Below are positions 4,833 through 21,504 of a stretch of 64,000 bases of DNA, piece by piece. The stretch is from an uncultured Myxococcales bacterium. Its GTDB lineage: Bacteria; Myxococcota; Kuafuiibacteriia; Kuafuiibacteriales; Kuafuiibacteriaceae. Numbering within the stretch: the stretch's first letter is position 1; each line of letters opens with the position of its first letter. Location: the NCBI GenBank assembly GCA_964463485.1, contig CAYXDO010000015.1:34259-98258 (forward strand). Reading direction: 5' to 3'. A program made the translations under genes and the position numbers. The notes under the pieces were generated by a model. The model was not told the origin of the DNA. It did not search any database and was given only the letters and a program-made list of their open reading frames with translations.

Positions 4833-5963
4833 GTGTTGGGCGAGAGGGGCTCGCTAGGAGTCGCGAAGCCCAGGCCGGCGACCGTTCCTTCGCCGGGTCA
4901 GCCATGCTACTCTTTCGCGGTGCAGGTTCTCATCTACGGGGCCGGGTCGATAGGCAATCACCTCGCCTTCGCATGCAGAGAGAGGGACTGGGAAGTCACC
5001 GTCGTCGATGTGGACAGTGCCGCCCTGGAGAGGATGCGGAGCGAAATCTATCCCAAGAGGTACGGCGCGTGGGACCCTGCGATCCGCCTGCAGCTCGGGG
5101 AGGAGGCCGCGGGGGCGGACTTGGTCATCGTCGGGACTCCGCCCGATTCCCACCTCGAATTGGCCGAACGCGCTTTGCGCCTGCGGCCTAGAATCGTGCT
5201 CATCGAGAAGCCGTTGTCGGTTCCGTTTTCCGACTTCAGCGTGGTCGAGCGGCTCGCGCGGGAAACGGGCACTCGCGTTCTGGTAGGTTACAATCATCTC
5301 CTTTGCCGGAATACGAGACACGTCGAGCAGTTGCTTGCCGAGGGTGCGATTGGAGCGCCTATCACGATTCGGGTGAGCTGGGTCGAGTCGTGGGTCGGAA
5401 TCCTGAGGGCCCACCCATGGCTCGCTGGCCCCGAGGCTTCCTACTTGGGAAACTGGGAGCGGGGAGGCGGCTCGCTCTGCGAGCACTCCCACGGGTTGAA
5501 CCTCTTTCAACATTTTGCGCGAACTCTTGGGTTTGGCGAAGTCGAGCTCGTGAGTGCGTCTTTCGACTTCGTCGAGCAGCCGGGTTCTTCGTACGATCGG
5601 ATCGCGCAGCTTCATCTCAGGACCGAAGGCGGGTTGACCGGGCTCGTCACTCAGGACGTGGTTCAAGATCCGCCGGAGAAGAGACTTACGATCGTCGGTG
5701 CGGACGGTGTGCTGAGTTGGTACGGCGCGCGTCCCGACTCGACCGACGGGGTCGTGCTCGAGTCTCGAGGCCGCCGGGAGGAGCGGACTTTCGTCCGATC
5801 GCGCCCGGACGACTTTCGCGGGGAGATCTCACATGTGGCTGACGTCCTAGCGGACCGTGAGCTCGAATCGCCGCTCTCGTTGGAGCACGGTATTCGGACC
5901 ATGAAGGTCATCGACGGAGCGTTCCGAAGCGCGCGCGAGCGCCGCTCGGAGGGGCTTCGATGA
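4833..5963 (+). CDS. Gfo/Idh/MocA-family NAD(P)-dependent oxidoreductase. Start is GTG at 4833 or possibly GTG at 4920.
   Basis: Rossmann motif VLIYGAGSIGNHLA, then VGTPPDSHLELAERAL...IVLIEKPLS typical of Gfo/Idh/MocA. The stop overlaps the next gene's start (ATGA at 5960-5963). Confidence 0.65.
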   Translation: MLGERGSLGVAKPRPATVPSPGQPCYSFAVQVLIYGAGSIGNHLAFACRERDWEVTVVDVDSAALERMRSEIYPKRYGAWDPAIRLQLGEEAAGADLVIVGTPPDSHLELAERALRLRPRIVLIEKPLSVPFSDFSVVERLARETGTRVLVGYNHLLCRNTRHVEQLLAEGAIGAPITIRVSWVESWVGILRAHPWLAGPEASYLGNWERGGGSLCEHSHGLNLFQHFARTLGFGEVELVSASFDFVEQPGSSYDRIAQLHLRTEGGLTGLVTQDVVQDPPEKRLTIVGADGVLSWYGARPDSTDGVVLESRGRREERTFVRSRPDDFRGEISHVADVLADRELESPLSLEHGIRTMKVIDGAFRSARERRSEGLR

Positions 5964-7492
5964 CACGCTTCGCTTTCGACCCGCTCTTCGTTTTCGACTT
6001 GGCGAACAACCATCAAGGAAGCCTGGACCACGGGCTGAGGATCGTGTCCGCCATTGGCGAGGTGGTGCGAGGCGAAGGGGTTCGGGCAGCGCTCAAGGTT
6101 CAACTCCGCCACCTCGAGAGCTTCATTCACCCGGCAGCTCGGGGCTCGAAGGAGAACCGCCACGTCGAGCGGTTTTTGAGCACGGCGCTCTCTGGCGAGG
6201 ATTTCGGAAGACTCATCGCTGCGGTCAGGACTGCCGGTCTGATTCCGATGGCGACTCCGTTCGACGAGAAGTCGGTGGACTCGTTGGAAGAGCTCGGTGT
6301 CGAGGTCGTCAAGATCGGAAGTTGCTCGGCGACGGACTGGCCGTTGATTCGCCGGGTCTGCGCCTCAGGCCGGCCGGTCATCGCCTCGACTGGCGGCATG
6401 TCGCTGATCGACATTGACCGGCTCGTGGCGACGTTCACAACGCACGACGTGGAGTTCGCGCTCATGCACTGTGTTTCGATTTATCCGACTCCTGACGACG
6501 CGTTGAGGTTGAATCAGATCGACGTCCTTCGGGCTCGCTATCCTTGGATCACGGTGGGCTTTTCGACGCACGAGACGCCGACGAATCTCACCGCCGTTCA
6601 GCTTGCGTATGCGAAAGGTGCCCGGATTTTCGAGCGGCACGTCGGCCTGCCCGCCGCGGGCATCGTGCTCAACGCCTACTCGTCGACGCCCGAACAAGTC
6701 CGCGACTGGATTCGCGCGCACGAGCACGCGCGAGCGATGTGTGGAGGTACGAGGCGAGCGCCCTCACCCCTCGGCGAGCTGGAGTCGCTTCGCTCCTTGA
6801 TGCGAGGTGTGTTCGCGAGCAGACCCATCGCTCGCGGCCAAACGATCGCGCGAGACGACGTGTTCTTCGCGATGCCCCTCACGGCTGGACAGCTGAGTTG
6901 TTCTCAGTGGACCGAGGGACTGACCGCCGATGGCGATTATGAACAGCTTGCGCCGCTGTCGTTGAAGCTCGCGGAGCGCGAGAAGACGCGAGAACAACTC
7001 GTCTCCGAGATTCTGCTGCAGGTGAAGGGAGCGCTGAGTAGCGCGCGCATTGCCGTCAATCGCGACGCGAGCTTCGAGATCTCGCACCACTATGGGCTCC
7101 AACGTTTTCGAGAGTTTGGAGCAGTGATCGTCACTTGCGTGAACCGGCAGTATTGCAAGAAGCTGCTCGTGCTGCTGCCTCGGCAGAAGCATCCCTATCA
7201 CATGCATCGAACCAAGGAGGAGACGTTCCAGCTCCTCGCAGGAGATCTCGAGCTCGAGCGCGACGGGACACCCATCACCCTTCGACCAGGTGACACGGCG
7301 CTCGTGGGTCCCGGCGTCTGGCACAAGTTTCACACCCTTGGGGGCGCGGTGATCGAGGAGATCTCCACGACGGACTCACCCAACGACTCGGTGTACGAAG
7401 ACTGGCGAATCAACTCGCTCGCGCCGGCCGAACGCAAGACGTCCGTGCGCGGTATCGAAACGAATCTCGAACAGCCCGAGCTTTCCGAGTAG
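5960..7492 (+). CDS. N-acylneuraminate (nonulosonic acid) synthase family protein: NeuB-like TIM barrel, SAF domain and an extra C-terminal cupin domain
   Basis: N-terminal VFDLANNHQGSLDHGLRIVSAIG resembles the NeuB/PseI/SpsE IAEIGxNHNG motif. A mid-region SAF-like segment (ARGQTIARDDVFFAMP). The last ~150 aa (HMHRTKEETFQLLAGDLELERDGTPITLRPGDTALVGPGVWHKFHT) is cupin_2-like. Confidence 0.7.
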   Translation: MTRFAFDPLFVFDLANNHQGSLDHGLRIVSAIGEVVRGEGVRAALKVQLRHLESFIHPAARGSKENRHVERFLSTALSGEDFGRLIAAVRTAGLIPMATPFDEKSVDSLEELGVEVVKIGSCSATDWPLIRRVCASGRPVIASTGGMSLIDIDRLVATFTTHDVEFALMHCVSIYPTPDDALRLNQIDVLRARYPWITVGFSTHETPTNLTAVQLAYAKGARIFERHVGLPAAGIVLNAYSSTPEQVRDWIRAHEHARAMCGGTRRAPSPLGELESLRSLMRGVFASRPIARGQTIARDDVFFAMPLTAGQLSCSQWTEGLTADGDYEQLAPLSLKLAEREKTREQLVSEILLQVKGALSSARIAVNRDASFEISHHYGLQRFREFGAVIVTCVNRQYCKKLLVLLPRQKHPYHMHRTKEETFQLLAGDLELERDGTPITLRPGDTALVGPGVWHKFHTLGGAVIEEISTTDSPNDSVYEDWRINSLAPAERKTSVRGIETNLEQPELSE

Positions 7493-7495: not shown

Positions 7496-8206
7496 GTGTT
7501 CTCTAGCAAGCGAACGTTGGTCGTAGTCCCGGCGAGGGGTGGGAGCCAAGGGATCCCGCTCAAGAACCTCAAGATCGTCGGCGGGCGGTCACTTTTGGCA
7601 CGAACCGGCGAGGTCGTTTCGCAGCTCGATTTCGTCGATCGCGCGGTCTGCTCGACGGATCATCCGCGCATCGCCGAGGAAGCTCGCGCGGTCGGTCTCG
7701 AGACTCCGTTCGTGAGGCCACAGACTCTCTCGGGGCCGCTCGTCTCAGACGCCGAAGTGCTCGAGCACGCGCTACGCGAGGTCGAGCGGCAGGAGGGCGC
7801 CGAGTACGATCTGGTGGTCATGCTGCAGCCGACGTCGCCCTTGCGTCGCGCCGAAGACGTGACGGGCACGGTGAAGATGCTGGTCGAAGGCGGCTACGAC
7901 GCGGTGTGGACGGTGAGTCTGACCGATCCAAAGCACCACCCCCTCAAGCAGCTCATCATCGAAGGTGACGCCCTCGATTATTATGATGCGGAGGGAGCCC
8001 AGATCATCGCACGCCAACAACTCACTCCTGTATACCATCGGAATGGAGTTGCCTACGCCATCTCGCGTGGCTGCTTGCTCGAACGGCGAAGCATCAAGGG
8101 GTCGAGAACCGGCGCGATGATCGTCGAAGCTCCCGCGATCAGCATCGACACCGAGAGTGACTGCGACTTTGCGGAGTGGATCCTCTCTCGGAGGAGCTCC
8201 CGTTGA
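7496..8206 (+). CDS. Acylneuraminate cytidylyltransferase family (CMP-nonulosonic acid synthetase, NeuA/KdsB-like)
   Basis: N-terminal LVVVPARGGSQGIPLKNLKIVGGRSLL matches the NeuA PARGGSKGIPxKN signature. 236 aa, typical for a stand-alone NeuA domain. Begins 4 nt after the NeuB-like stop. Confidence 0.8.
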   Translation: MFSSKRTLVVVPARGGSQGIPLKNLKIVGGRSLLARTGEVVSQLDFVDRAVCSTDHPRIAEEARAVGLETPFVRPQTLSGPLVSDAEVLEHALREVERQEGAEYDLVVMLQPTSPLRRAEDVTGTVKMLVEGGYDAVWTVSLTDPKHHPLKQLIIEGDALDYYDAEGAQIIARQQLTPVYHRNGVAYAISRGCLLERRSIKGSRTGAMIVEAPAISIDTESDCDFAEWILSRRSSR

Positions 8207-8214
8207 TTCCGGAG

Positions 8215-9543
8215 ATGGCGCGCCGAAAGGCCGAGAGCGCCAAGCGCCGGGTGGGTGAGCGCGCGCTCGGCGTGGCTGCCAGGGCTCGTCGGGCCAGGGA
8301 GACCGCGTTGCTCCTGAGGGCCTTGATTCGACCCATCACACCTCGGCGCGGGTCGAACGCGATCAGGATCCTCGTGCTGCCGGCAAATGGGTTTCTGGAG
8401 GACATGCTGGAGGTCGCGGCGAGCGACCCTCGGATCGAGCTCCATGCGCTCTCGCGGACCGCGGTGAAGGCCGTTGCTTCAGCCTTTCTCTCTCCTCGGG
8501 TCAATGACTTCACGTATGGGTCTCCGGACGCGGCCGATCGGCAGGGTATGCGGGCGTATCGCGAGTTTCTCGTCGAGGTGCTCCTTCGAATGCCTTCGGA
8601 GTTGAGGTTCCATGCAGTGGCGAGCGGCAATTTTGCCTACTATGCGGAGCAGGAGCTCGCCGCAGCGTTCGAGGCCTGTGGAGTTCCGTTCGTCGTGCTT
8701 TTGAAGGAGTGTCTCAACACCCCCGGTCTCGAGCGGTTTTGGGAGAGAGTCTATCGTGAGTGGCGCCGACCGTTTGGCGGCCGAAAAATCCTCGTGTACA
8801 ACGAAGGGACTCGGGGGTTGCTCTTGCGCTCGGGTGTTGCGCCGAGCGAGCGCATCTCGGTGGTAGGGATGCCGCGGCTCGATCGCCAACATCGGGACCG
8901 GTCGGGAGGGATGTCCGCCGCACAACTCTTGTTCCTCGTCTTTGGGCCTCGAACAGGGTTGCCGGACATTCCTTCGAGCCGGCGGGACCTCCCCTCAGAG
9001 CTCAGGTACACGGGATGGCGAGACCTCGCGAGGGAGTGCCATCGCGCGGTGCTCGACGTCGCGGTCGAAGCGCCCGAGTCGAGGATCATCGTCAAGGCCA
9101 AGGAAGTCTTGGCCCACCAAAGGGAGGTGGAGGAACACTACCAGGGTCGTCGCGAGCTTCCGCCGAACGTCGAGGTGATCTCGGTGGGCGAGGTGTTCGA
9201 GCCCTTGAGGCGCAGCAGGATCGTGGTGGGTTTCAAATCGACGGCTTTGCTGGAGGCGATGGCGGCCGGCAAGGCGGTCATGGTGCCTCGCTTCGCGGAA
9301 GCGAGCGACCCGGCCTTGGCGGACTTCCTGTTGGATTTGGGAGAGTATGTCGAGTATCCGGAGTCAGCGAGCGCGTTCCGAGCTTCGATGCTACAGCACT
9401 TACGCGGGCAGCGGACGGCGCCGGGCGCTGCCGAATGGGCCGCGCTGGCAAGGCCGGTGTTGGAGCGATGGCTCGGCAACGCCGACGGTCGCTCGGCGGA
9501 GCGAGCTCGGGCCGAGCTCTTGGAGCTGAGTCGTGTCGCATAG
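8215..9543 (+). CDS. Hypothetical protein of about 442 aa. Candidate GT-B-like sugar transferase or modification enzyme acting on the CMP-nonulosonate product.
   Basis: ATG at 8215 is preceded by GGAG. ORF-track start 8176 overlaps the NeuA-like gene. No motif I can name. The position, wedged with overlaps between NeuA-like and GT2, suggests the same operon. Confidence 0.5.
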   Translation: MARRKAESAKRRVGERALGVAARARRARETALLLRALIRPITPRRGSNAIRILVLPANGFLEDMLEVAASDPRIELHALSRTAVKAVASAFLSPRVNDFTYGSPDAADRQGMRAYREFLVEVLLRMPSELRFHAVASGNFAYYAEQELAAAFEACGVPFVVLLKECLNTPGLERFWERVYREWRRPFGGRKILVYNEGTRGLLLRSGVAPSERISVVGMPRLDRQHRDRSGGMSAAQLLFLVFGPRTGLPDIPSSRRDLPSELRYTGWRDLARECHRAVLDVAVEAPESRIIVKAKEVLAHQREVEEHYQGRRELPPNVEVISVGEVFEPLRRSRIVVGFKSTALLEAMAAGKAVMVPRFAEASDPALADFLLDLGEYVEYPESASAFRASMLQHLRGQRTAPGAAEWAALARPVLERWLGNADGRSAERARAELLELSRVA

Positions 9544-10405
9544 TGTCTCGGTCGTGGTTCCGACCGCGAACAGACGACCGCACGAAATTCTCCGAGCCGT
9601 CGACAGCGTGTTGTCGCAGTCTTCGGGCCGAGCGCTCTCGGGCGTCGAGCTCATCGTCGCGAACAACTCGTCCGGGCGGCTCAACCGCGCCATCGAGGTG
9701 CTCGCAGAGTCCGGCGCGCTGCAGGTCGTGGACGCCTCACGGGTGACCGGTGTCAGTCACGCTCGAAACGCGGGCGCTCGTCTGGCGCGACACGAAGTCC
9801 TCGCATTCTTGGATGACGATGACTGGTGGTCCCCGTCTTTCCTCTCAGACTTGCTGCTCGAGCTCGACGCACACTCCGCCGATTTGTGCTCCAGCGGGTT
9901 TTGGGTTTGGACGGAGAGAGGTAAGAAGCCCGGTCCGATGCTCGAATCACCCACGACGGCGGCGCGGTTCTTGAGTGAGAATCCGGGCATCACGGGCTCG
10001 AACTTCATCATTCGTCGGAGCGCCTTCGAGGCGCTCGGCGGCTTCGACGAGGCCCTGTTCGCGTCCAACGATGGGGACTTCATGATTCGCTTCCTGGAGT
10101 CCGGAGAGTACGCATGGCGAGTCGTGATGGCGAGGCTGGTGAACGTAGACCGTACGCCACACGACCAGGTCTCCGTGCCCACGCCAAGACGAGTCCAGAG
10201 CATGCGGAGATTTCAGTCCATCCACGGCGCCAAGATGGGCCCGCGGGTCCAGAGAGACTTCGAGTACCGCCTGGCCGTGTGCGAGGCCGCGAGCAACCGA
10301 TCCTATTGGGATTTGGTCGGGCTGATTCCCCGGCATCCTAGGTGGTCACGCCAGACACTCGGGTGGATCAAGAAGCTCGCGCTGGGCCGGCACTCGACGT
10401 TCTGA
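9533..10405 (+). CDS. Glycosyltransferase family 2
   Basis: MSHSVSVVVPTANRRPHEILRAVDSVLSQS...FLDDDDWW is a GT2 fold signature. Start overlaps the previous stop by 11 nt. Confidence 0.75.
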   Translation: MSHSVSVVVPTANRRPHEILRAVDSVLSQSSGRALSGVELIVANNSSGRLNRAIEVLAESGALQVVDASRVTGVSHARNAGARLARHEVLAFLDDDDWWSPSFLSDLLLELDAHSADLCSSGFWVWTERGKKPGPMLESPTTAARFLSENPGITGSNFIIRRSAFEALGGFDEALFASNDGDFMIRFLESGEYAWRVVMARLVNVDRTPHDQVSVPTPRRVQSMRRFQSIHGAKMGPRVQRDFEYRLAVCEAASNRSYWDLVGLIPRHPRWSRQTLGWIKKLALGRHSTF

Positions 10406-11456
10406 GCGGATCGCGGCTCAGACGTCTGGCGACCGCGTCAGCCATCGCCCGCTCCACGTTCACCGGACCCCCGATTTCGATCCAGCGGTCGAATTCTCGC
10501 CGATAATGAAAGCGAGCCTTCAGCGCCGTCGTGAGCCCGAAATGCACACCTTGATACTCCAACAACAATGGACGTTCTGGGCTTGGCCGACGATCGACGA
10601 TGATGTCGAGCGACGCGAAGGGCAGGTCGAGCTCCTTGGCGGCCTCGAAAGCGAAGTCGAGGATCGTTGCGGGGACCGGCAAGAACTCGAGCCTGCCGCC
10701 CCCGCTCGCCCGAAAGTCGCGCCGACGATTGCGGCGGTAGAGGCCGCACGCGACGTCGTCCCACAGAAGTACTTTCCAATCCCCTTCGCTGACGATGAGC
10801 TCCTGAGCGACGAGTCGCCCAACGGTATGCCGGCGCAGCGCTCGGTCGAGCGCCCGCCTGACGAGACCGCGACCGGGAAACGATGCCGGATCGGTGAGGA
10901 TTCGTCGCGCGGCCCGTCGCGCCTCGCTGGGCGTGCGCGCGAGGCTCACGCCGGAGGCCCCCCACCCAGTCGCGGTCTTCAACACGATGGGAAAGTCCGC
11001 ATCAGCCAAATAGCGATCGAGGTGACCGGAAAAGCCGAAGACTCGAGTCCGCGGGACGGGAATCTTGGAGCGCCCGAGACGGACGGCCTGGTAGACCTTG
11101 TCTTCGTGGGCGAGCATGTGCTCGAACGAAGGCAAGAGGACGACGCCTTGTCTCTCCAGGGCTGAGAGTATCGACCTGATGAAAGCCGAGTACTCTGGAC
11201 GCTGGCTCGTCGCGTACACGGCGGCGGAGGGCCGAGCTGTGGCAAGCTCGAACAACCGCGGATCATGGAGCCCTACCGAAACCGCTTCGAGCCCGTGCCC
11301 GTTCAAGCTCCCCTCGAGCTCCCGCAAGTCTAGCCCCTCGTTCGCGCCGATGCGTTGTGGCACCTGGCCTTTGAAGTCCGTGAGGATCAAGACCCGAGAG
11401 ATGGGTACGGATAGGCGAGGAGAGTCCACCGCCCGACGAATAACTCGACGCTTCAC
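10368..11456 (-). CDS. ATP-grasp domain protein (RimK/D-Ala-D-Ala-ligase-like). Start uncertain, probably GTG near 11456.
   Basis: FPIVLKTATGWGASGVSLARTPSEARRAARRIL is the ATP-grasp glycine-rich ATP-binding region, followed by WKVLLWDDV...YRRN. The full ORF to 11660 would overlap the divergent GT2 start at 11475, so a shorter N-terminus is likely. Confidence 0.55.
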   Translation of the reverse strand: MKRRVIRRAVDSPRLSVPISRVLILTDFKGQVPQRIGANEGLDLRELEGSLNGHGLEAVSVGLHDPRLFELATARPSAAVYATSQRPEYSAFIRSILSALERQGVVLLPSFEHMLAHEDKVYQAVRLGRSKIPVPRTRVFGFSGHLDRYLADADFPIVLKTATGWGASGVSLARTPSEARRAARRILTDPASFPGRGLVRRALDRALRRHTVGRLVAQELIVSEGDWKVLLWDDVACGLYRRNRRRDFRASGGGRLEFLPVPATILDFAFEAAKELDLPFASLDIIVDRRPSPERPLLLEYQGVHFGLTTALKARFHYRREFDRWIEIGGPVNVERAMADAVARRLSRDPLRTSSAGPARAS

Positions 11457-12464: not shown

Positions 12465-13457
12465 GTGCTCATCTCCATCGTCATACCGATGCTTGACGAA
12501 GCGGGGAGCCTGCCGAGCCTCCACGCGGAGCTCGTCAAAGTCATCGAATCGAGTGGTCTCGAGGCGGAGGTCATCTTCGTCGACGACGGAAGCACGGACG
12601 CGACGTGGCGAGAGCTCGAAGCCATGACCCGACAGGATTCCAGAGTCGTGGCCCTTCGCCTGCGGCGCCGATTCGGCAAGGCCGCTGCGCTCTCGGCGGG
12701 CTTTGCGTTGTCGCGAGGCGAGCTCATCGTGACCTTGGATGGAGATGGCCAAGACGACCCGATGGAGGTTCCTCGGTGCTTGCGCGCGATCGATGAGGGC
12801 CTCGACGTCGTGGTCGGGTGGAAGCGCGATCGAAGGGACCCATTTACCAGGGTCCTCGCCAGCCGAATATTCAACCTCACGGAGAGCCTGCTCAGCGGGT
12901 TGCGGCTTCACGATCATAACTCGGGGCTGAAGGCGATGCGTCGCGCAGTGGTGTCGGAGGTGCGGTTGCACGGGGAGCTCCATCGCTTCATTCCCGCGCT
13001 CGCTCATGCTCGCGGCTTCCGGGTGGGAGAGATTCCGGTGAATCACCGGCCGCGTAAGTTTGGAAAATCCAAGTACGGCTTGTCGCGGTACGTCTGGGGA
13101 CTCCTCGATCTATTGATGGTCCGCCTGCTCGTGGGTTATCGCAGCCGGCCCCAACACGTGTTGGGTCTCTTGGGCTTCGGCTCCTTCTTCGCTGGCGGGA
13201 CCGGGCTGAGTTACCTCGCGGCCACGTGGATCGCCCGTTTTTATCGAGCGGACGAATACCTTCCGCTCGCGTCACGGCCACTGACTTTGTATTCGGTGGC
13301 CGCCCTCGTCTTCGGCGCCCAGATGCTGTCCTTGGGATTTCTCGCGGGACTCCTGCCCGTCTACAGCTCCCGAGATGAGGATCATTACAGCATCAAGGGA
13401 GTCATCGACTCCCGCCGGCCCCTCGACGTGTCCGCGCAGGAGAAGAGAGGAACGTGA
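12465..13457 (+). CDS. Polyprenyl-phosphate glycosyltransferase (GT2, DPM1/ArnC/GtrB-like) with C-terminal TM helices
   Basis: MLISIVIPMLDEAGSL...VIFVDDGSTDATW...VTLDGDGQDDP is the DPM1/ArnC signature. Two C-terminal hydrophobic helices typical of bactoprenol-P sugar synthases. Confidence 0.8.
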   Translation: MLISIVIPMLDEAGSLPSLHAELVKVIESSGLEAEVIFVDDGSTDATWRELEAMTRQDSRVVALRLRRRFGKAAALSAGFALSRGELIVTLDGDGQDDPMEVPRCLRAIDEGLDVVVGWKRDRRDPFTRVLASRIFNLTESLLSGLRLHDHNSGLKAMRRAVVSEVRLHGELHRFIPALAHARGFRVGEIPVNHRPRKFGKSKYGLSRYVWGLLDLLMVRLLVGYRSRPQHVLGLLGFGSFFAGGTGLSYLAATWIARFYRADEYLPLASRPLTLYSVAALVFGAQMLSLGFLAGLLPVYSSRDEDHYSIKGVIDSRRPLDVSAQEKRGT

Positions 13458-15286
13458 ATTCGAGAGAGCCCGGAGTGACCAACTCAGCTCGCCCGGGACT
13501 TCTCGAGGCGATGGGCGCGACCTGGTCGATGCTAGCCGTCAAGGATCGGCGTCGCCTGCTCGGACTCGTGGGGCTGCTCGTGATCGGCGCTGGACTGGAG
13601 GCGCTCGGAGTTGGATCGATCTTGCCGATCGTCCTCATGATCACTCGAGGTGAGTCAGCGGCTGCCCCGGGCTTGTCGCCCAAGCTCTACGCGGTGCTCG
13701 AGCGACTCACTTCGGGAGTCGGTCCTCCTGCGGTGGCGCTGCTCGTAGTCGGCGTCTTCGTTGTCAAGAACGGCTTTCTCTCCCTGACCGCGTACCTGCA
13801 ATTTCGTTTCATCAATCGCTTGCAGGTAGAGGCGGGAGAGGAGTTGTTTCGCCTTTACATGAGTCTGCCGTACGTCGATCATCTGGGTTCGAACCCGGCG
13901 CATCTGCTGAGGGACATCGACTCGGACGTCAAGCTCGCCCATCAAAAGGTGCTGCGCGCGATGATTCAGCTCCTCACGGAGGCCTTCGTTCTCTCTGCCA
14001 TCACGCTCCTGCTCGCGCTGCTCGATCCAGCCGTCGCGATCGCGGCGTTTGGGGTTTGTGGGGCGATGGGTTGGGCGTTTCACAGACTGATTAGGCGAAA
14101 GAGCGCTGGCTTGGGGCTTGCGGAGCGTCGGGCTCGGGGTCGAATCAACGAGCTCGTCCTGCAAGGGTTGCACTCCCTTCGTGAGACGAAGGTTCTCGGA
14201 CGCGAGGGCTTCTTCATCGCCGGTTTCGCGGAGGAGGCTCGACTGTTTTCGCGCGCGCACCTTTTCAACCAAATGGCGACGACGACCCCGTACTACGTTC
14301 TCGAGACGGTCGTGGCGGCAAGTCTGCTCCTGGTCCTGTGGTTGGGTCTGGTTCGGGGGTATGAGTTGTCGACGCTGGCTCCGGTCTTGGCTGTGTTCGT
14401 GGTCGCCGCGCTCCGCCTCGCCCCTTCGCTCAATCGAACGCTCGGAGCGGTCGAGTCGATGAGGTTCCACGGCCCCTCCGTGCGGGCGCTGTTGGCGAAT
14501 CGCTCGCGGGCACGTGCGAGTATCCTCGTCGAGGTGACGATGGGCGAACGAATCGAGCTGACGAATTCCATCCAGCTCCGAGGAGTTTCGTTCTCCTATC
14601 CCGACTCGCGTCGCCGCGCGCTCACCGAAGTCGAGCTTACCATCCCTCACGGCACGATTTTCGGCCTCGTCGGCCCCACCGGTAGCGGTAAGACCACGAC
14701 GGCCGATCTCGTACTGGGGCTGCTGCGCCCTCAAAGTGGGGAAATCCTCGTCGACGGGAAAGACATCTTCCGCGGCCTCGAGAGTTGGCGGGATCAGGTC
14801 GCGTATGTACCGCAGACCGTCTATCTCACGGACGACACGATTCGTCGAAACGTCGCCTTCGCCCTGCCGCCCGAGCGAATCGACGAGGCCGCGGTACTCA
14901 GGGCGCTGGAAGGCGCGCGGCTCCTCGACTTCGTACGCTCGCTCCCCAAGGGGCTCGAAACCGTCGTGGGAGAAGCGGGAGCTAGGCTCTCGGCGGGGGA
15001 GCGTCAGCGGATTGGAATCGCCCGCGCGCTGTATCGACCGGGCCGACTCCTCGTCCTAGACGAGTCCACCTCGGCGCTCGATTTGGAAACCGAGCGGCAA
15101 ATCTGCGAGACGATTTCGAGCCTACGCAAGGATCGGACGATCCTGATCATCGCTCATCGGCCCAGCACGATCGAGTCATGCGACCAGGTCTGCCTGCTAT
15201 CAGAAGGTCGTATCATGCGGATCGGAGCTCCACGAGAGGTGATGGGCGAAGGTTTCGGAGTGGCCTCGGCTGGGGCGCTTTCATGA
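13454..15286 (+). CDS. ABC exporter, fused permease plus ATPase (MsbA/PglK-like). Candidate lipid-linked glycan flippase.
   Basis: Six-TM N-terminal half. Walker A GPTGSGKTT, ABC signature LSAGERQRIGIARAL, Walker B LLVLDESTSALD. GTG start overlaps the upstream stop (GTGA). Confidence 0.85.
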   Translation: MNSREPGVTNSARPGLLEAMGATWSMLAVKDRRRLLGLVGLLVIGAGLEALGVGSILPIVLMITRGESAAAPGLSPKLYAVLERLTSGVGPPAVALLVVGVFVVKNGFLSLTAYLQFRFINRLQVEAGEELFRLYMSLPYVDHLGSNPAHLLRDIDSDVKLAHQKVLRAMIQLLTEAFVLSAITLLLALLDPAVAIAAFGVCGAMGWAFHRLIRRKSAGLGLAERRARGRINELVLQGLHSLRETKVLGREGFFIAGFAEEARLFSRAHLFNQMATTTPYYVLETVVAASLLLVLWLGLVRGYELSTLAPVLAVFVVAALRLAPSLNRTLGAVESMRFHGPSVRALLANRSRARASILVEVTMGERIELTNSIQLRGVSFSYPDSRRRALTEVELTIPHGTIFGLVGPTGSGKTTTADLVLGLLRPQSGEILVDGKDIFRGLESWRDQVAYVPQTVYLTDDTIRRNVAFALPPERIDEAAVLRALEGARLLDFVRSLPKGLETVVGEAGARLSAGERQRIGIARALYRPGRLLVLDESTSALDLETERQICETISSLRKDRTILIIAHRPSTIESCDQVCLLSEGRIMRIGAPREVMGEGFGVASAGALS

Positions 15287-16266
15287 GTAGCGGGAGCCGT
15301 CCGCTTCGGCCTCAGTCGGGTCGGGATGAGAGCTCAACTCCGACCGCGCCGTCGAATCCGGGAAACGGAGGCCAGGTCGCCCTGAGTGTCGTGATTCCAG
15401 CATACCAGATGCGCGACGAGCTCGCGTCGTGCCTCGATGCGTTGATGTCGGAGCGCTCCGACGCGGGAGTTTCTTTCGAGGTGATTGTCGTCGAGAGCTC
15501 TGGAGATTCGACCGCCGCCGACCTGGCCGATCGATTCACCGAGGTGACTTTCGTGGACGTTGGCGCCCGCGCGTTCGCAGGAGAGGCTCGGAACATCGGC
15601 GCACGGCGCGCGAGAGCCCCTATCATCGCTTTTCTCGACGCGGACTGTATCATCGAGCCAGGCTGGGTCGAGGCCACGATTCGGTCCCATGAGTCCGTGG
15701 ACGCGATCGTCGGCGGAGCCGTGCTTCCGCGGCCGCCGATTTCGGCGAGCGGCCTCCTGCTCTTCGCGATCGAATTCTCGGAGTTCCTTCCTCGGGGGAA
15801 GCGTCGCGAGATGCGCTTCGTTCCTTCGTATAGCATGTCGCTTCGCTCGTCGACGATGGCGGCGACTGGCGGGTTCAGTGCCGAGCTCGAAGTCTCCGAA
15901 GATGTCGCATTTTGTGCAGCCGCGCGACGCGCGGGCCGACGCGTGTTGTTCGAGCCTTCCGTTCGCGTCCGTCACGTCGACCGATCTGGGTTCCAACGAG
16001 CGCTCGGGAGGCTTCACAAGCTGGGGGAGGGGTCGGGGCGAGCGAGAGTGTTGCATGAGCTTCACGGGAGCTTCATCGCGCGTTTCAGACCACTCGTACC
16101 CTTGTTGGTTCCCTACCGATTCGCCATGATTTTCGGGCGCGTCGCCGCGAGTGACCACGGTATCGAGCGGGCGCTCGCGTACGCGCTCGGCGCTCCGATC
16201 GTGCTCCTCGGCTTGGGCTCGTGGGCGCATGGGTTCTGGGTCGGGATCAAAGAGGCGAGTCCTTGA
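15283..16266 (+). CDS. Glycosyltransferase family 2
   Basis: VALSVVIPAYQMRDELASCLDAL...FEVIVVESSGD...FLDADC. ATG at 15283 overlaps the ABC-gene stop (ATGA). ORF-track start 15178 lies inside the ABC gene. Confidence 0.7.
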   Translation: MSSGSRPLRPQSGRDESSTPTAPSNPGNGGQVALSVVIPAYQMRDELASCLDALMSERSDAGVSFEVIVVESSGDSTAADLADRFTEVTFVDVGARAFAGEARNIGARRARAPIIAFLDADCIIEPGWVEATIRSHESVDAIVGGAVLPRPPISASGLLLFAIEFSEFLPRGKRREMRFVPSYSMSLRSSTMAATGGFSAELEVSEDVAFCAAARRAGRRVLFEPSVRVRHVDRSGFQRALGRLHKLGEGSGRARVLHELHGSFIARFRPLVPLLVPYRFAMIFGRVAASDHGIERALAYALGAPIVLLGLGSWAHGFWVGIKEASP

Positions 16267-17729
16267 AACGGCTCCCGCTGGCAGACCGGGTCACTCGCGC
16301 GTTGCTGGTGATGTCACTGGTCGTGCTGGTCGGCCGGGTGCTCAGCGTGCCGGGCCCCTTCGGTGCCAACGACGTCTCCAGATGGGCCACCATTCGGTCC
16401 TTGGTCGACTTCTCGACGTTCGCAGTCGGTCAGCGCATTCGGGCGCCGGACGGAAGACTGGTCGAAGACAAGCCTCAGGGGACCATCGATCTCGTGTTGG
16501 ATCCGAGGACTGGATTCTTCTACTCGAGCAAGCCTCCCCTCCTCTCGACGATCATGGCCGCGGAGTACTGGGCGCTCCATCGCGCCCTGGATTGGCGCAT
16601 CGATACTCATGAGCCTCAGATCATGAAGGTTCTGCTTCTGACGTTCAACGTCACGGCGCTCACGACCTATCTCCTCGTCTTCGCGAGATTTCTCGAAGAT
16701 TTGAAGATCGTAGGTTGGAGTCGGGCGGTGCTCATCGGGCTCGCGGGGCTCGGAACCTTCGTCACGACCTTCGCCACGTCGATCACGAATCATGTCCCCG
16801 CCGCCGTATCGACATTGCTCTCTGCATACTGCTTCCGCAACGCCTGGGTTGGCGGAGCGCGGTTGGCTTATTTCGGGGCGGGTCTCTTCGCTGGCGTCGC
16901 CGCGAGCCTGGAGATACCAGCCGTGATTTTTTTGGGCGTCGTCGGGATCGTTCTCGTCGTCAGGAGTCCGCTGCGAACGTTTGGGCTATACTTCCCGGCG
17001 GCCTTGATTCCGATGGGGGGGTTTTGGCTCACGAACAGCCTGTCGTTTGGCGACCCTTTCTTCTTCTACCGACATCCGAAAGACTGGTTTGCGTACCCGG
17101 GTGGGTACTGGGACGCGCCGAGCGGCGTCGATCTCTTCGACAAGGGCCCGGTCGAATACTCGTTTCATTATCTCCTCGGACACCATGGGATCATCTCGCT
17201 CACACCCATGTTTTTCTTGGCGATCGTGGGTCTGGTCCGGACCAACCAAGCCATTCCGCGAGCTCGGTCTTGGATGGTCGCCGGGCTGATGTGCCCGGCC
17301 CTGGTCGGACTTTTGGCCCTGGGTCGCGTCGACGTGCCCGTGCCGACGGTCGTATCGATGGCGCCTTCCCTCCTGGTTGCCGGGCTCTGCTTCGTCTTGC
17401 CATGGAGATGGTTCGAGCGGGCCGGCGCGGATCCGGCAGGGTTCGATCGAGCCTTCTCGCGAGTCACGATCGCCTGCAGCCTCGTCGTCGCTTCGTTCTA
17501 CGTCTCTGGCACCTCGAACTACGGCGGGATCGCGGCCGGACCCCGCTGGTTCATGTGGCTCATGCCGCTGTGGATTGTATTCATGGGCTCGGGGACCGCG
17601 GAGTTGCTCGACTCCAAGCGGGGCCGATTCGTGCTCTCGGCGCTCCTCGCATTCTCTGCCTACTCGGCGCTCAGCCCAGGTGTGAGTGCGTGGACCAATC
17701 CCTGGATCTACTCCTTTTTCTTCCGGTGA
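16263..17729 (+). CDS. Polytopic membrane protein with at least 10 predicted TM segments. Putative GT-C-type glycosyltransferase or glycan polymerase.
   Basis: Highly hydrophobic 480-490-aa ORF. A candidate TTG start at 16263 overlaps the GT2 stop (TTGA). Follows polyprenyl-P GT2, ABC exporter and GT2 in one coupled run. Confidence 0.5.
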   Translation: MKRLPLADRVTRALLVMSLVVLVGRVLSVPGPFGANDVSRWATIRSLVDFSTFAVGQRIRAPDGRLVEDKPQGTIDLVLDPRTGFFYSSKPPLLSTIMAAEYWALHRALDWRIDTHEPQIMKVLLLTFNVTALTTYLLVFARFLEDLKIVGWSRAVLIGLAGLGTFVTTFATSITNHVPAAVSTLLSAYCFRNAWVGGARLAYFGAGLFAGVAASLEIPAVIFLGVVGIVLVVRSPLRTFGLYFPAALIPMGGFWLTNSLSFGDPFFFYRHPKDWFAYPGGYWDAPSGVDLFDKGPVEYSFHYLLGHHGIISLTPMFFLAIVGLVRTNQAIPRARSWMVAGLMCPALVGLLALGRVDVPVPTVVSMAPSLLVAGLCFVLPWRWFERAGADPAGFDRAFSRVTIACSLVVASFYVSGTSNYGGIAAGPRWFMWLMPLWIVFMGSGTAELLDSKRGRFVLSALLAFSAYSALSPGVSAWTNPWIYSFFFR

Positions 17730-20110
17730 ACCTCGAGCGTTCCAAATGGAATCACCGCCAGGCCCAAGTAGATCGCTGCGCCGAGCGCAATGGCCACGTC
17801 GAACCCGAGCGCATGCGAGATCGGGAGGTTGAATCCCGCAGCGAGTACAGCTGCCACTGAGTTTACGGCGAGGGCCCACGGGACGAGGCTCGAGTCGGAC
17901 GCGGACAGCGCGCTCAGGCCCCGTGGAAAAACGAGGCCGAGACCGAAACCGGCCGGCGCGAGCGCGACCACACACCCGAGCATGCGCAGCGCAACCTCCG
18001 ATCCGAGGAGGGTTGCCTTGGCGAGGTCGAGCGCGAAGAGCGAACCCAAAGAGCCCAGAGCGGCCAAGACGAGCGCGCCCCTGATTCCACGACCCGCGGC
18101 CCTGGTCGACCATCTACTGCCCAGCCCGGTAAAGACGATCAGGCCGCCGAGGCCAACGGCCAAGCTCTGACCAGGCCGCCCGACCAAGAGCTCGAGCTTT
18201 TGGAGGAGTCCGAGCTCGACCATCATGAACCCGCTCCCGGCGCCGAAGAACAGAAGCAGAAACTTCACCCGCTCGGAAACGTGGGCGCGAGAAGTTTCCT
18301 CCGCGCGGCGAATGCCGCGAAACCGTCGCAGGAGCAGAGGACCCAAGATGAGTATGACGGCGACCCCCGCGAACGCGGCGAGCGCCTCGCGGCGTCGGAC
18401 TTTGTGCTCGAAGTCCGCCCGAAAACCCAGCCGGTCCAATTCGGTTGGAAGTCTCGGCCACAAATACGCCGACGGTGGGAGCAAATCATAGACGAACGGA
18501 CGTTCATCACCGTCAGGTAACAGGCGCAAGCCGAGGGGGTTCTGTTCCAACACAGAGACTGGATCGTCGGCGTGGAGCAGGTCGTAATACGGGTTTCCTG
18601 GCTGGGAATGACGGGGAGCATACAGAAATCGGCCCGACTCTCCCGCGGCGATGCGCGTCAGGTCGGCGTCCGAGAAGCCGTGCGGCTTGATCAGGATCCG
18701 TGATTGATCGTGAGGGTCCCACCAAGCACGAGTCGCGCCCGAAACCACGGCCATGGCGTCACTCGCCCGTCCGGGACCGAGGGTGGAGTCGAGGACCTCG
18801 CGCACGGTAGCGGCCAATTTGAGCTTGTTGGTGTTCAGCACGGTGAGTTGACCCCCAGGAGCGAGGTGGTCGATGAGTTGGGCAACTCCCTGGCGAGTAT
18901 ACAAGAAACCCATGGCCTCGGTCAGCACGCCTCCGAAGGCCGCATATCCGGCCCCGGTCCAGGAGACGACTATGCAATCGAACTTACGAGCGTCGCGAGC
19001 CAAAAATCCCCGAGCCTCATCGATGACGAGCTCTATGTTGGGTTTGTCGAAAAACTCCGCGAGGTGGAAGTCGGTCTGAGACCGAGGCCAGTCCACGACC
19101 TGCGGCAGCAGCTCGACGCCCGTGATCCGAGCGCGCCCGCCAAGCGCGGCGTCGATCTGAATCATGTCCCAGCCGGCTCCGGCCAAGAGGACGAGCACAG
19201 AATTTCTGGGACATGCGGCCAGCGCTAGCTCAACGGCCTCGTCTGGGTCAGAGAGACTGCCTGGGTCATAGGGAACGATCGTCGCATGACCCCGTCCCTC
19301 CTCATGCGCCATGACGTAGCGCGTGCCTCCGGCCTCCTCGATTCTCAGCGCTGCGACCCGGGTGAGTGCGGTCCAGGTGTGCCATAGCTCCGTCACGGAG
19401 CCGCTCATGGAGCGGCTGAGTTTTCGGAGATCCGGTCTAGGCTCGAACGACTCGGCGACCTTTGGAAGGAGCAGGAGGCTGGAGGACGCCGCGAGCGCCA
19501 GACACACTCCCAGGAGCTTCTGGCTCCGCGAGTAAAGCCCCGCGCAGCAGAAGGCCAAACCGACGACGAACGCGAGAGGAGGTGCGAATCCACCGAGCTC
19601 GAGCAGGGCCACGGCGAGCACACACCCCGCCGCGGCGCCGAAGAGGTCGAATGAGTAAAGGGAGGCGATTCGCTCGGGAAGAGCCGCCGAAAATACCACC
19701 GAGTGTGCGACTCCGATGAAGAAGAACGGCAGGCTCATGAGCGCTCCGATCGCCAGCGCTCCTCGCATCTCGAGCGCCGCCGACTTGGCGACCAACTCAT
19801 CCAGCGTCGCGGCAGGAAGTCCATTCAGGTGCGACTTGATGCGCGCGGCCGCGAAGAATAGAACCAAGACGGACACCGCCGCCCCGAGCATGGCCCATGC
19901 AGCTTCCTGGCCTGCCCTCGACAGAGTCGGGGGCTCCTTCCTCAAGCAAACCCAGGCTCCGGCGACCGCCGTGCCAAGCATGGCCACTGACACCGTGTAA
20001 TATACCGTCGGCGGACCAAAGACGATGCTCAGCACCCGGCTCGCCAGAATCTCGAGGAGCAGGAGCGTCGCGGAGGCGACGAACACGGACCAAGATAGCC
20101 TCACCGTCAC
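17708..20110 (-). CDS. Spermidine-synthase-like (PABS-fold) domain embedded in a polytopic membrane protein
   Basis: Central VLVLLAGAGWDMI...VELLPQVV...FDCIVVSWTGAGYA...LAPGGQLTV is a class-I/spermidine-synthase-like fold. It is flanked by N- and C-terminal multi-TM regions. Start overlaps the next gene's stop by 4 nt. Confidence 0.7.
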   Translation of the reverse strand: MTVRLSWSVFVASATLLLLEILASRVLSIVFGPPTVYYTVSVAMLGTAVAGAWVCLRKEPPTLSRAGQEAAWAMLGAAVSVLVLFFAAARIKSHLNGLPAATLDELVAKSAALEMRGALAIGALMSLPFFFIGVAHSVVFSAALPERIASLYSFDLFGAAAGCVLAVALLELGGFAPPLAFVVGLAFCCAGLYSRSQKLLGVCLALAASSSLLLLPKVAESFEPRPDLRKLSRSMSGSVTELWHTWTALTRVAALRIEEAGGTRYVMAHEEGRGHATIVPYDPGSLSDPDEAVELALAACPRNSVLVLLAGAGWDMIQIDAALGGRARITGVELLPQVVDWPRSQTDFHLAEFFDKPNIELVIDEARGFLARDARKFDCIVVSWTGAGYAAFGGVLTEAMGFLYTRQGVAQLIDHLAPGGQLTVLNTNKLKLAATVREVLDSTLGPGRASDAMAVVSGATRAWWDPHDQSRILIKPHGFSDADLTRIAAGESGRFLYAPRHSQPGNPYYDLLHADDPVSVLEQNPLGLRLLPDGDERPFVYDLLPPSAYLWPRLPTELDRLGFRADFEHKVRRREALAAFAGVAVILILGPLLLRRFRGIRRAEETSRAHVSERVKFLLLFFGAGSGFMMVELGLLQKLELLVGRPGQSLAVGLGGLIVFTGLGSRWSTRAAGRGIRGALVLAALGSLGSLFALDLAKATLLGSEVALRMLGCVVALAPAGFGLGLVFPRGLSALSASDSSLVPWALAVNSVAAVLAAGFNLPISHALGFDVAIALGAAIYLGLAVIPFGTLEVHRKKKE

Positions 20111-21504
20111 GGGTCCTCCGGGGCACTCGAAGACGGCTCATTTCGCTCCCTCAGCGGGAAGCGAGCGCTCGAGATTCCAAGCCAGGCCACGATTCCGATC
20201 AAGAGAGCATTTCGAAGGACCAAGATGGTGACCGTCGGTGCGCTCAGCGCTGGAATGAGTCCTAATTCGTCCACAAGCTCGTCTCCCAAGTGCGAAACGA
20301 AGTGCTGACGATAGACCCAGTCCGTGGCCAAATACACCAGAGTGATGAGACCCATCAGGATCGGAAGCTCGCGAGGTCGAAGGACCTCGAGCCCTACGAC
20401 GCAAGCCATGGGTACGAGCCAGATGAGGTACTGCGGAGAGAGGACCTTGGAAGCAACGACGAACCCGAGAATCGCAACCAAGAGTAAGCCCAGCTCGTTT
20501 TCGCGCCTTGCTCGCAGGGTGCACGACGCCACGATGACGCCCTGCGCGAGCAGAGAGAGCGTCGACAGGGACCCAGCGATCGAAGTCTCGAGCTCGAACG
20601 TGTGGAACGCGAGCACAGCGCGGGCGTCGAGACCGAGAGGGCGCAACATGAGTACCAAACTCGACCATACCGACTCGATCTCGAGCCCTCGCACCGCGTG
20701 GAAATGAAGAAACCTGAGCGCACCGGCTCCCGCGTCCAGATGAGGAAGAAAAGTCGCACCGATCGCAGCTCCAACGGCGACAAGGCCGATCGCCGCTCGT
20801 CTCCGGCTCGCTCTCCACCGACTCGCGAAGAGAACCGGGACGGCCGCGGCCGGAAAAATCTTCAGCGCCACGCATCCGCCCAAGGCCGCATCGGCGGCGA
20901 GGTGTCGCTGACGATTCCAGAGACACAAGAACGCGGAGATTCCTGTCAGGAGCGCCACGTCGAGTCGGTCGTAGAGGACCGACGGCACGAGAGCGGGACC
21001 GAGCGCGTATACGATGGCGCCTAGCCCCGCGCGCCGGGCCGAGTATCGAGACAGAAAGTGGAGGAACGCCACGAATCCAAGAACGTCCAGCCCGGCCATC
21101 AAAGCGCGAAACCGGTGATAGTAGACGAGCAGGACTCGGAGGCGGAGCTTGTCAGCGGGCTCGATGCGCGACCCTGCTACGGCGCCTAGAGGATAGATGT
21201 CGCGCTCATCCAGATCCACGAGCTGCCGCCGGAAATTGGGAAACCAGCCCACGAGAGTCGGATCTCTGATTTCGCGGGCCGAAATGCCCAGCGATGGCAA
21301 CGCGATCAGCCACCACGCAGGGGGTGGATATTCGACCTGGATGTCTCGATACATCGAACCGCCGAGCTTCCAAGCCACGACGCGCTCGTGGTAGCGAACC
21401 ACATCGGTGCCGCCCGTGAGCGACTCTACCTCGAGCAGAACGAACGCGCGGGTGATCACGAACAGCAGCACACCCGGCAAGAGCCAGCCTAGTCTCTTTT
21501 TCAT
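20107..21504 (-). CDS. Polytopic membrane protein, DUF2029/GT87-like (GT-C-type mannosyltransferase-like)
   Basis: N-terminal TM helix followed by RYHERVVAWKLGGSMYRDIQVEYPPPAWW (DUF2029-like eYPP region), with many TM helices after. Confidence 0.5.
   Translation of the reverse strand: MKKRLGWLLPGVLLFVITRAFVLLEVESLTGGTDVVRYHERVVAWKLGGSMYRDIQVEYPPPAWWLIALPSLGISAREIRDPTLVGWFPNFRRQLVDLDERDIYPLGAVAGSRIEPADKLRLRVLLVYYHRFRALMAGLDVLGFVAFLHFLSRYSARRAGLGAIVYALGPALVPSVLYDRLDVALLTGISAFLCLWNRQRHLAADAALGGCVALKIFPAAAVPVLFASRWRASRRRAAIGLVAVGAAIGATFLPHLDAGAGALRFLHFHAVRGLEIESVWSSLVLMLRPLGLDARAVLAFHTFELETSIAGSLSTLSLLAQGVIVASCTLRARRENELGLLLVAILGFVVASKVLSPQYLIWLVPMACVVGLEVLRPRELPILMGLITLVYLATDWVYRQHFVSHLGDELVDELGLIPALSAPTVTILVLRNALLIGIVAWLGISSARFPLRERNEPSSSAPEDP

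Follow-up and report, generated by a model that had tools for sequence, protein, structure and literature searches.

We analysed a 64,000-nucleotide stretch of DNA from an uncultured Myxococcales bacterium (GenBank assembly GCA_964463485.1, contig CAYXDO010000015.1, positions 34,259–98,258 of the forward strand), hereafter the window, and in it the gene of an unnamed protein family, hereafter the target. The target lies in a tightly coupled operon that encodes, in order, a Gfo/Idh/MocA oxidoreductase, a NeuB-like ulosonate synthase fused to a C-terminal cupin (NeuB::cupin), a cytidine monophosphate (CMP)-ulosonate synthetase-like protein (CTP_transf_3), the target and a family 2 glycosyltransferase (GT2; Table 1). 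The first two genes overlap by 4 nt, and the target is translationally coupled to the CTP_transf_3 gene through a TTGA overlap. On the basis of its predicted fold, remote homology and conserved synteny, we lean modestly towards the reading that the target founds a new family of CMP-ulosonate (nonulosonate-type) glycosyltransferases.

Table 1. Features of the target gene and its operon (window coordinates)
Feature	Position	Strand	Evidence and remarks
Gfo/Idh/MocA oxidoreductase	4833..5963	+	PF01408, PF22725, PF02894; first gene of the operon
NeuB-like ulosonate synthase with C-terminal cupin (D-lyxose/mannose-isomerase-like)	5960..7492	+	PF03102 (136 bits), Cupin_2, Lyx_isomer
CMP-ulosonate synthetase-like gene (CTP_transf_3)	7496..8206	+	PF02348 (59 bits); ends with TGA 8204–8206
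GGAGGAG, Shine–Dalgarno-like site	8190..8196	+	6 nt before TTG 8203; read from the sequence
Target gene	8203..9543	+	Predicted GT-B-fold protein of an unnamed family
L163-K164-E165 (family H-K-E)	8701..8709	+	After N-domain strand 4; tentatively opposite D/E-D/E-G (WCEEG) of TIGR04396
G218-M-P-R221-L-D223-x-x-H226-x-x-R229, linker motif	8866..8901	+	Matches GNPRFD of TIGR04396
K294-A-K296	9094..9102	+	After C-domain strand 2; in the place of the (K/R)XHP CMP-phosphate-binding motif
K341-S-T343-A-L-L-E347-A (family N-S-T-x-L-L-E-A)	9235..9258	+	Nucleotide-ribose-binding helix typical of GT-B C-terminal domains
G421-N-A-D-G425-x-x-x-x-R430	9475..9504	+	C-terminal family signature
GT2 glycosyltransferase	9533..10405	+	PF00535 (81.5 bits); overlaps the target stop
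Fused transmembrane domain–nucleotide-binding domain (TMD-NBD) ATP-binding cassette (ABC) exporter of the glycan locus	13454..15286	+	PF00005

The reading frame of the target is open from GTG 8176 to the stop TAG 9541–9543. An earlier note on this DNA, made from the letters alone, had described a 442-residue open reading frame (ORF) from ATG 8215 whose stop overlaps the start of the GT2 gene (GTG 9533) by 11 nt. These coordinates were confirmed, but the GGAG–ATG start proposed with them is doubtful: GGAG 8211–8214 touches the ATG with zero spacer and is therefore a poor Shine–Dalgarno sequence, and the GGAGGAG that precedes TTG 8203 is the better site. Translation from TTG 8203, which overlaps the upstream stop by 4 nt, gives 446 residues and corresponds to the database copy (P0001), while the NCBI version (MBI4818515.1, a ‘hypothetical protein’ from a deltaproteobacterial metagenome-assembled genome, MAG) begins at GTG 8176 and has 455 residues. 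TTG 8203 is likelier than ATG 8215 to be the true start. The target is a genuine gene and not a chance ORF. Its GC contents at the three codon positions (0.68/0.50/0.77) follow the same pattern as those of the four flanking genes, the alternative-frame ORF at 8760–9746 (328 residues; 0.72/0.72/0.54) is unlike its coding neighbours, and homologues of the target occur across phyla at 32–41% identity. The overall GC content is uniform at about 0.63 along the whole window, and a horizontally acquired island was rejected on this ground.

The target reached the curated cut-off of no model in Pfam or NCBIfam, so the statement of the earlier note that no motif could be assigned is accurate at that level. 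The family is nevertheless not wholly isolated, as three sub-threshold matches point in the same direction and are informative: DUF6716 (PF20471, putative glycosyltransferase; 18.4 bits against a cut-off of 27), TIGR04396 (surface carbohydrate biosynthesis protein; 32.4 bits over the C-terminal 136 residues only, cut-off 125) and NF046086 (BFO_1060 family glycosyltransferase; 24.2 bits over the C-terminal 160 residues, cut-off 200). A word-indexed search returned only 18 relatives, whereas an exhaustive profile search returned 2,873 cluster representatives at E ≤ 1e-3 and 678 (of 50%-identity clusters) at E ≤ 1e-30; judged by these searches, the family is sizeable, unnamed and widespread. When 100 members were scanned all matches were weak, with TIGR04396 matched by 85 (best E 1.7e-15) and NF046086 by 72 (best E 1.9e-18), followed by DUF6716 (31), Epimerase_2 (5), Glyphos_transf (2) and Capsule_synth (2). 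DUF6716 is the only Pfam match of the target itself; the 31 weak matches lie over the C-terminal domain, cover the profile in part and, among the members tested, all fall below 27 bits (the highest individually scored, P0016, reaches 25.1). Single-sequence and profile searches of the PDB gave only weak C-terminal matches to GT1 and GT4 enzymes (CalG4, E 4e-5; CapJ, E 0.009), and tblastn of the target against plasmids and phages gave no matches. No housekeeping family, an outcome for which the earlier note had allowed, claims the protein. A literature search on TIGR04396, DUF6716 and the target family yielded nothing beyond the work on Tannerella forsythia discussed below.

An AlphaFold model of the target, built from an 18-sequence alignment, has a predicted local distance difference test score (pLDDT) of 87.9 and a predicted template-modelling score (pTM) of 0.88. 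It opens with two basic N-terminal helices (residues 1–37), after which come two Rossmann-like α/β domains that have a cleft between them and a helix at the C terminus that crosses back; this arrangement corresponds to a predicted GT-B fold. In both domains, strands bear invariant charged residues at their C-terminal ends. The closest structural matches are UDP-N-acetylglucosamine (UDP-GlcNAc) 2-epimerases and NeuC, and TagF/TarL enzymes are also among the neighbours; the earlier note had proposed a check for a GT-B or TagF-like fold, and its expectation is borne out at the level of the model. Its alternative suggestion of an O-acyl or amidino modifier is incompatible with a GT-B fold. Fold alone cannot separate a transferase from an epimerase or hydrolase, because no single subfamily stands out.

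Conservation was counted over 136 family representatives from many phyla, in which about 25 polar or charged positions are kept in at least 90%. The linker consensus G-[MC]-P-R-x-D is carried by R221 (136/136), G218 (135), D223 (134), R229 (125) and H226 (121). In the N-terminal domain, position 164 is Lys in 135 representatives and E165 is invariant; the residue that follows is Cys, Asn or Ser. After strand 2 of the C-terminal domain, position 294 is Lys in 132 and Arg in four, and position 296 is Lys in 133 and Arg in three, with no His in any; the next residue is variable, Gly being the commonest. The helix beginning at K341 keeps T343 (131/136) and E347 (133/136), aligns to NCTTGVEA of TIGR04396 and, in the GT1 enzymes CalG4 and YjiC, to the corresponding helix, and so provides in E347 the conserved Glu on C-domain helix α4 that is characteristic of GT-B proteins, with a putative role at the ribose. 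In the C-terminal signature G425 (133), N422 and D424 (132 each) and R430 (130) are retained; this signature resembles the GdG-A-x-rI motif of UDP-GlcNAc 2-epimerases. The window protein is slightly atypical, with L163 for the usual His and K341 for Asn, but has all of the positions conserved in at least 90%. It is barely credible that the target arose as a spurious ORF in a GC-rich genome, or that its product is a scaffold or pseudo-enzyme without catalytic activity. Sequence of 63% GC often contains long chance ORFs, and the hallmark catalytic motifs of the related families are missing, but the conserved polar and charged positions, the coding-frame GC pattern, the confident structure model and the 678 cluster representatives at E ≤ 1e-30 all speak against this explanation.

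The closest profile-level relative of the target family is TIGR04396, whose members are of the same length and occur in the same loci, often adjacent. Alignment of the two families with hhalign gave a probability of 98.2–98.4% (E 4e-14 to 8e-15), over 164 C-terminal-domain columns in the default run and 275–348 columns in two other runs. Both have G-x-P-R-x-D, N-x-T-x-x-x-E-A, a Pro after C-domain strand 5 and a C-terminal D-G...R. TIGR04396 sequences were collected by a database search and from genes adjacent to target homologues in related loci, and the motifs AWCEEG, GNPRxD, RPHPSE and HNxCTTGxE are near-invariant in them; AWCEEG and RPHPSE (each at least 90% conserved in 139 and in 50 TIGR04396 sequences), however, are both absent from the target family, in which K294-x-K296 aligns to R-P-H-P and, of the D/E-D/E-G pair, the second acid alone is kept. 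The two families co-occur as distinct paralogues and do not replace one another. True TIGR04396 proteins score 56–99 bits on the BFO_1060 model. The database search that started from a TIGR04396 neighbour returned the same family, mostly annotated as ‘hypothetical’ or ‘surface carbohydrate biosynthesis protein’, and the T. forsythia enzymes were not among its results; a TIGR04396 profile searched against PDB sequences found no solved relative, only noise.

The BFO_1060 group (NF046086) consists of soluble proteins of about 445 residues with a GT-B/TagB-like architecture, among them Tanf_01245 and TFUB4_00887 of T. forsythia, which transfer derivatives of pseudaminic acid (Pse) and legionaminic acid (Leg). 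BFO_1060/Tanf_01245 homologues are required for the addition of Pse/Leg derivatives in T. forsythia, the knockouts lose the terminal nonulosonic acid and the enzymes carry D/E-D/E-G and HP motifs (PMC5420450). Their genes, like the target, lie beside CMP-nonulosonate biosynthesis genes, and their sequence similarity to the target family is weak but systematic; in contrast to these proteins, whose motifs we take from the published description, the target family has K-E-x and K-x-K. From these profile comparisons the target family is best placed as a divergent sister of the TIGR04396/BFO_1060 group, which is already named but barely studied. The suggestion of the earlier note that the gene is a candidate for a new family of nonulosonate transferases is therefore upheld in part: fold, remote homology and synteny favour a CMP-sugar transferase, while donor and activity are deduced and the family is the sister of a named group.

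Membership of a GT52-, GT80- or GT42-type family, which the earlier note had raised, was not found, and two sialyltransferase motifs are specifically absent. Sialyltransferases of GT38, GT52 and GT80 and the retaining β-Kdo (3-deoxy-D-manno-oct-2-ulosonic acid) transferases of GT99, GT107 and GT140 have a GT-B-type architecture, as is predicted for the target, and further likenesses are the presumed CMP-ulosonate donor, a gene beside a CMP-sugar synthetase and, where (K/R)XHP has its first residue, the basic K294. They differ in that His-Pro is replaced by Lys-x in every member of the target family examined. Conservation of (K/R)XHP has been described both for the families of sialyltransferases and for retaining Kdo transferases (PMC12887879). 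The QXXXD nucleophile motif of the retaining Kdo transferases has no counterpart among the conserved columns of the target family. On the present alignments, the target family fails motif-based membership tests although it is remotely homologous to motif-bearing proteins.

Gene neighbourhoods were compared within a 10-kb radius in 37 non-duplicate loci from seven metagenomic places and 30 GTDB genomes, with hosts among the Alpha-, Delta- and Gammaproteobacteria, Verrucomicrobia, Planctomycetes (Scalindua), Patescibacteria and Actinomycetes. In agreement with the association that the earlier note had proposed to look for, a CTP_transf_3 homologue was found in 32 of the 37 loci (median distance 2.2 kb) and a NeuB homologue in 29, in unrelated genomes; the five loci with no clear CTP_transf_3 match are truncated or have weak matches. 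Desulfatibacillum alkenivorans DSM 16219 (locus L029) is the one cultured organism among the carriers found. Other recurrent neighbours are Gfo/Idh/MocA oxidoreductases (19/37), TIGR04396 members and fused ABC exporters (18/37 each), sulfotransferases (15/37) and polysaccharide deacetylases (13/37). The link to the CMP-sugar synthetase also persists in the 19 loci that have no TIGR04396 member. The window is one of these, and no other CMP-sugar consumer was found there among ten further genes scanned. In Scalindua locus L038, the gene order is dehydratase, sugar dehydrogenase, HAD, NTP-transferase, NeuB, CMP-synthetase, methyltransferase, acetyltransferase, target, methyltransferase and ABC exporter, so that the target homologue is the sole glycosyltransferase-like gene in an operon for nonulosonic acid biosynthesis and ABC export. 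Parcubacteria L034:62–9019 matches Scalindua L038:1836–14311 in the sizes and order of its ORFs, which suggests that the cassette as a whole was transferred horizontally across a very large phylum-level distance. A low-sensitivity screen detected no GT2 or GT4 gene in about 12 loci. Several loci contain two diverged paralogues of the target family that fall into different subclades, as would be expected of linkage-specific transferases and not of pathway enzymes. Canonical Epimerase_2 genes co-occur with the target family in about 20 loci. The operons with a sole glycosyltransferase, the lack of another candidate in the window, the paralogues, the co-occurring epimerases and the synteny together favour a transferase that consumes a CMP-sugar over a biosynthetic enzyme.

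Several points nevertheless weigh against a CMP-ulosonate transferase. The best structural match of the model is an epimerase and not a transferase. Both motifs of the known transferases are absent, with K-x-K in the place of (K/R)XHP and K-E-x in the place of D/E-D/E-G, and mutation of the motif His to Ala in KrkA abolishes activity (PMC12887879). The pairing of K-E with D/E-D/E-G is itself tentative, since it appears in relaxed or alternative hhalign runs only and is absent from the default run. The K-x-K-G loop resembles the phosphate loop of GT4 enzymes that depend on nucleoside diphosphate (NDP)-sugars, such as CapJ. The neighbourhood counts were obtained with home-made hidden Markov models, and the GTDB loci were fetched through a single peptide pattern. 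Finally, the motif-bearing TIGR04396 protein present in 18 of the 37 loci could be the real ulosonate transferase.

The serious alternative, which we nevertheless regard as unlikely, is that the target is a GT-B glycosyltransferase of the same pathway with an ordinary NDP-sugar donor, which adds the residue that bears or follows the ulosonic acid; the CMP-sugar would then be transferred by TIGR04396 where it is present, or by the product of an unlinked gene in the window genome. The loss of the (K/R)XHP His, the alignment of the K-x-K(G) loop with the phosphate loop of the GT4-type CapJ, the weak matches to the GT1 C-terminal domains of CalG4, YjiC and SnogD, and the presence of TIGR04396 with intact WCEEG and RPHPSE in 18 loci, often adjacent, are consistent with such a donor. 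However, the CMP-sugar synthetase remains linked to the target family in the 19 loci that lack TIGR04396, L038, whose ORF layout L034 shares, offers no other glycosyltransferase for the CMP-sugar, the closest sequence relatives are TIGR04396/BFO_1060 and not GT4 or GT1, and K294 keeps the first basic residue of the motif.

It is improbable that the target is instead a GT-B-fold nucleotide-sugar hydrolase or 2-epimerase, an analogue of NeuC/LegG or PseG that supplies the NeuB-like synthase with the free sugar for its condensation. The similarity to Epimerase_2 is confined to part of the C-terminal domain (hhalign probability 94%, E 1e-7, over 103 columns that include the common GdG-A-x-R motif), whereas TIGR04396 aligns over 164–348 columns, and the target matches none of PF02350, TIGR03568 and TIGR00236. 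UDP-GlcNAc 2-epimerases and NeuC are the top structural matches, five of the 100 scanned members match Epimerase_2 weakly, and neither the window nor the other five NeuB::cupin loci encode a canonical Epimerase_2 protein. Set against this, the target would be redundant in the roughly 20 loci that also encode a canonical Epimerase_2 enzyme, and two diverged paralogues in several loci would be unusual for a pathway enzyme. The His after C-domain strand 2, which belongs to the HP of TIGR04396 and which we take to be present in epimerases as well, is Lys in the target family.

A TagF/TarL-like phosphotransferase or polymerase that assembles a teichoic-acid-like or capsule-like polymer, either from a CDP-activated alcohol or by transfer of sugar phosphate, is quite improbable. 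TagF/TarL phosphotransferases and Bcs3-type capsule polymerases have the GT-B fold that is predicted, and the kind of cytidine-nucleotide donor that is presumed, for the target, and the linker motif is presumably similar as well. However, the target has no match to PF04464, the HP histidine, which we assume to be catalytic in TagF-type enzymes, is replaced by Lys, no CDP-glycerol or CDP-ribitol cytidylyltransferase or other CDP-alditol synthesis gene was found among the window genes scanned, and the adjacent cytidylyltransferase is of the CMP-NeuAc/CMP-Kdo type.

Returning to the CMP-ulosonate transferase, we infer a CMP-activated ulosonic acid as the donor from gene context, in particular from the CTP_transf_3 homologue in 32 of the 37 loci; acceptor, residue roles and stereochemistry are likewise matters that we infer. 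The target would be a cytoplasmic, probably membrane-peripheral enzyme, with which the basic N-terminal helices are consistent. Its donor would be a CMP-activated 2-keto-3-deoxy sugar acid (ulosonic or nonulosonic) made by the products of the three upstream genes. The C-terminal Rossmann domain would bind the CMP moiety, with E347 at the ribose and with K294, K296 and the G248-x-P250 loop at the phosphate in the place of (K/R)XHP, while the N-terminal domain and linker (K164, E165, Y195, R221, D223, H226 and R229) would hold the ulosonate carboxylate and the acceptor hydroxyl. As general base, E165 is the likeliest candidate. The sugar would be moved to a lipid-linked glycan made by the neighbouring GT2/GT4 enzymes, and the finished glycan would be exported by the ABC transporter of the locus.

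The presumed donor is unusual. In the synthase, an SpsE-like NeuB domain is joined to a cupin of lyxose/mannose-isomerase type. NeuB::cupin scores far below the NeuB and PseI equivalog cut-offs, its best PDB match is the SpsE-like 3g8r (299 bits, compared with 97 bits for Neisseria meningitidis NeuB) and its cupin domain matches 7nzo. The CTP_transf_3 protein scores 100 bits against the PseF model, below the cut-off of that model, and its best solved relative is N. meningitidis CMP-NeuAc synthetase (80 bits). The oxidoreductase, NeuB::cupin and CMP-synthetase upstream of the target constitute a candidate for an unusual ulosonate pathway. The arrangement of oxidoreductase and NeuB::cupin recurs in L006, L007, L022, L030 and L031, and a NeuC-type Epimerase_2 gene is absent from these five loci and from the window; the fusion and the oxidoreductase in loci lacking such a gene therefore suggest a different route to the sugar substrate, possibly to a Kdn-like or novel ulosonic acid from a ketose. 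A more specific proposal, which we regard as possible though doubtful, is that the target represents a new CAZy-level family of CMP-ulosonate transferases that dispenses with the (K/R)XHP His, a residue held to occur in all sialyl-, nonulosonyl- and retaining Kdo-transferases, uses a K-x-K phosphate clamp and serves a previously undescribed ulosonate pathway (Gfo/Idh/MocA and NeuB::sugar-isomerase-cupin, with no NeuC-type enzyme), the product of which may be Kdn-like or a new keto-deoxy sugar acid. In a neighbour-joining tree of the family members taken from the loci, only four of the six proteins that accompany NeuB::cupin cluster, with the window protein and that of L030 branching separately, and co-evolution with donor type is not demonstrated by this tree.

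Transferases are the least known step in the pathways of bacterial nonulosonic acids (PMC5420450), here Pse, Leg, Kdn and their relatives. A family of hundreds of sequence clusters, nearly always beside CMP-synthetase and NeuB genes, would serve as a marker of sialic-acid-like surface glycans in uncultivated bacteria, the carriers including Patescibacteria, anammox Planctomycetes, Verrucomicrobia and many Proteobacteria, and the family could supply enzymes for the chemoenzymatic synthesis of nonulosonosides. If use of a CMP-sugar is correct, CMP-ulosonate transfer by a GT-B enzyme does not require the His-Pro motif; if the donor is another, the target is an ordinary though unclassified glycosyltransferase of these loci. 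The family is distinguished by K-x-K in the place of (K/R)XHP and is best seen as a useful lead for an under-populated enzyme class, not as a categorically new system.

Further features were observed in the neighbourhoods of other members. Homologues of the fused TMD-NBD ABC exporter are located at L002:5106–6809, L006:3121–4938, L007:17138–18958 and L038:12485–14311, with 27–46% identity between loci, which suggests an ABC-dependent mechanism for export or flipping of the glycan. A recurrent operon in L010–L025, mainly from Alphaproteobacteria (e.g. L015:6438–12695, L019:6404–13665 and L011:4310–12723), contains Gfo/Idh/MocA, CMP-sugar synthetase, sulfotransferase, polysaccharide deacetylase, target-family and TIGR04396 genes, with NeuB and NeuC 5–8 kb upstream; its content hints at a sulfated and/or de-N-acetylated nonulosonate glycan, and no literature on this operon was found. 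An unannotated 304-residue protein that matches no Pfam or NCBIfam model (L002:8996–9910, L004:9090–10004 and L020:3591–4982) is encoded immediately upstream of the target homologue, which its gene overlaps or abuts, and an aminoglycoside phosphotransferase (APH)-like kinase gene is nearby in these three loci; its homologues at L010:5966–6910 and L028:7289–8485 are 2.8 and 6.2 kb, respectively, from the target homologue. A gene resembling transketolase/1-deoxyxylulose-5-phosphate (DXP) synthase lies beside NeuB, CMP-synthetase and short-chain dehydrogenase/reductase (SDR) genes at L002:17580–19499 and L009:5920–7842 and may belong to a third pathway, distinct from the others, to the precursor of the sugar acid. 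Target homologues are split into two or three ORFs at L032:9776–11322 and L033:9698–11249, and the Gfo/Idh/MocA, CTP_transf_3 and deacetylase genes near the target are also split at L025:17864–21232; these are either pseudogenes or frameshift errors of long-read MAG assemblies.

In the window itself, a very large protein with PPDK_N and phosphoenolpyruvate (PEP)-utilising mobile domains is encoded directly upstream of the glycan locus (192–2720, + strand) and extends upstream of the window; its counterpart in L001:1–4518 has 1566 residues. The glycan locus uses a PEP-consuming synthase, and this PPDK_N/PEP-utilising gene is nearby. Convergent with the GT2 gene, and overlapping its end, is the gene of a RimK/ATP-grasp-like ligase with sub-threshold matches only (10368–11429, − strand), which could attach an amino acid, or some other acyl group, to either the glycan or the sugar acid. 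Four large proteins have no or weak family matches: 16221–17729 (+), 17708–20110 (−), 20107–21504 (−; GT87-like at 21 bits) and 41839–43845 (−; matches PMT_2). The first three are strongly hydrophobic and of membrane type by translation, and the hydrophobic proteins could be GT-C-type enzymes acting on the periplasmic side. A sulfotransferase gene (36530–37534, +) and a CotH-kinase-like gene (37545–39299, −) are found some 27 kb away from the target; elsewhere the target family often has a sulfotransferase gene nearby, but the copy in the window is outside the glycan locus. Adjoining the glycan locus is an ordinary resistance–nodulation–division (RND) efflux operon (21742–27970, −) which, as read from the translations, encodes an outer-membrane factor, an AcrB-like pump, a membrane-fusion protein and a TetR-type regulator.

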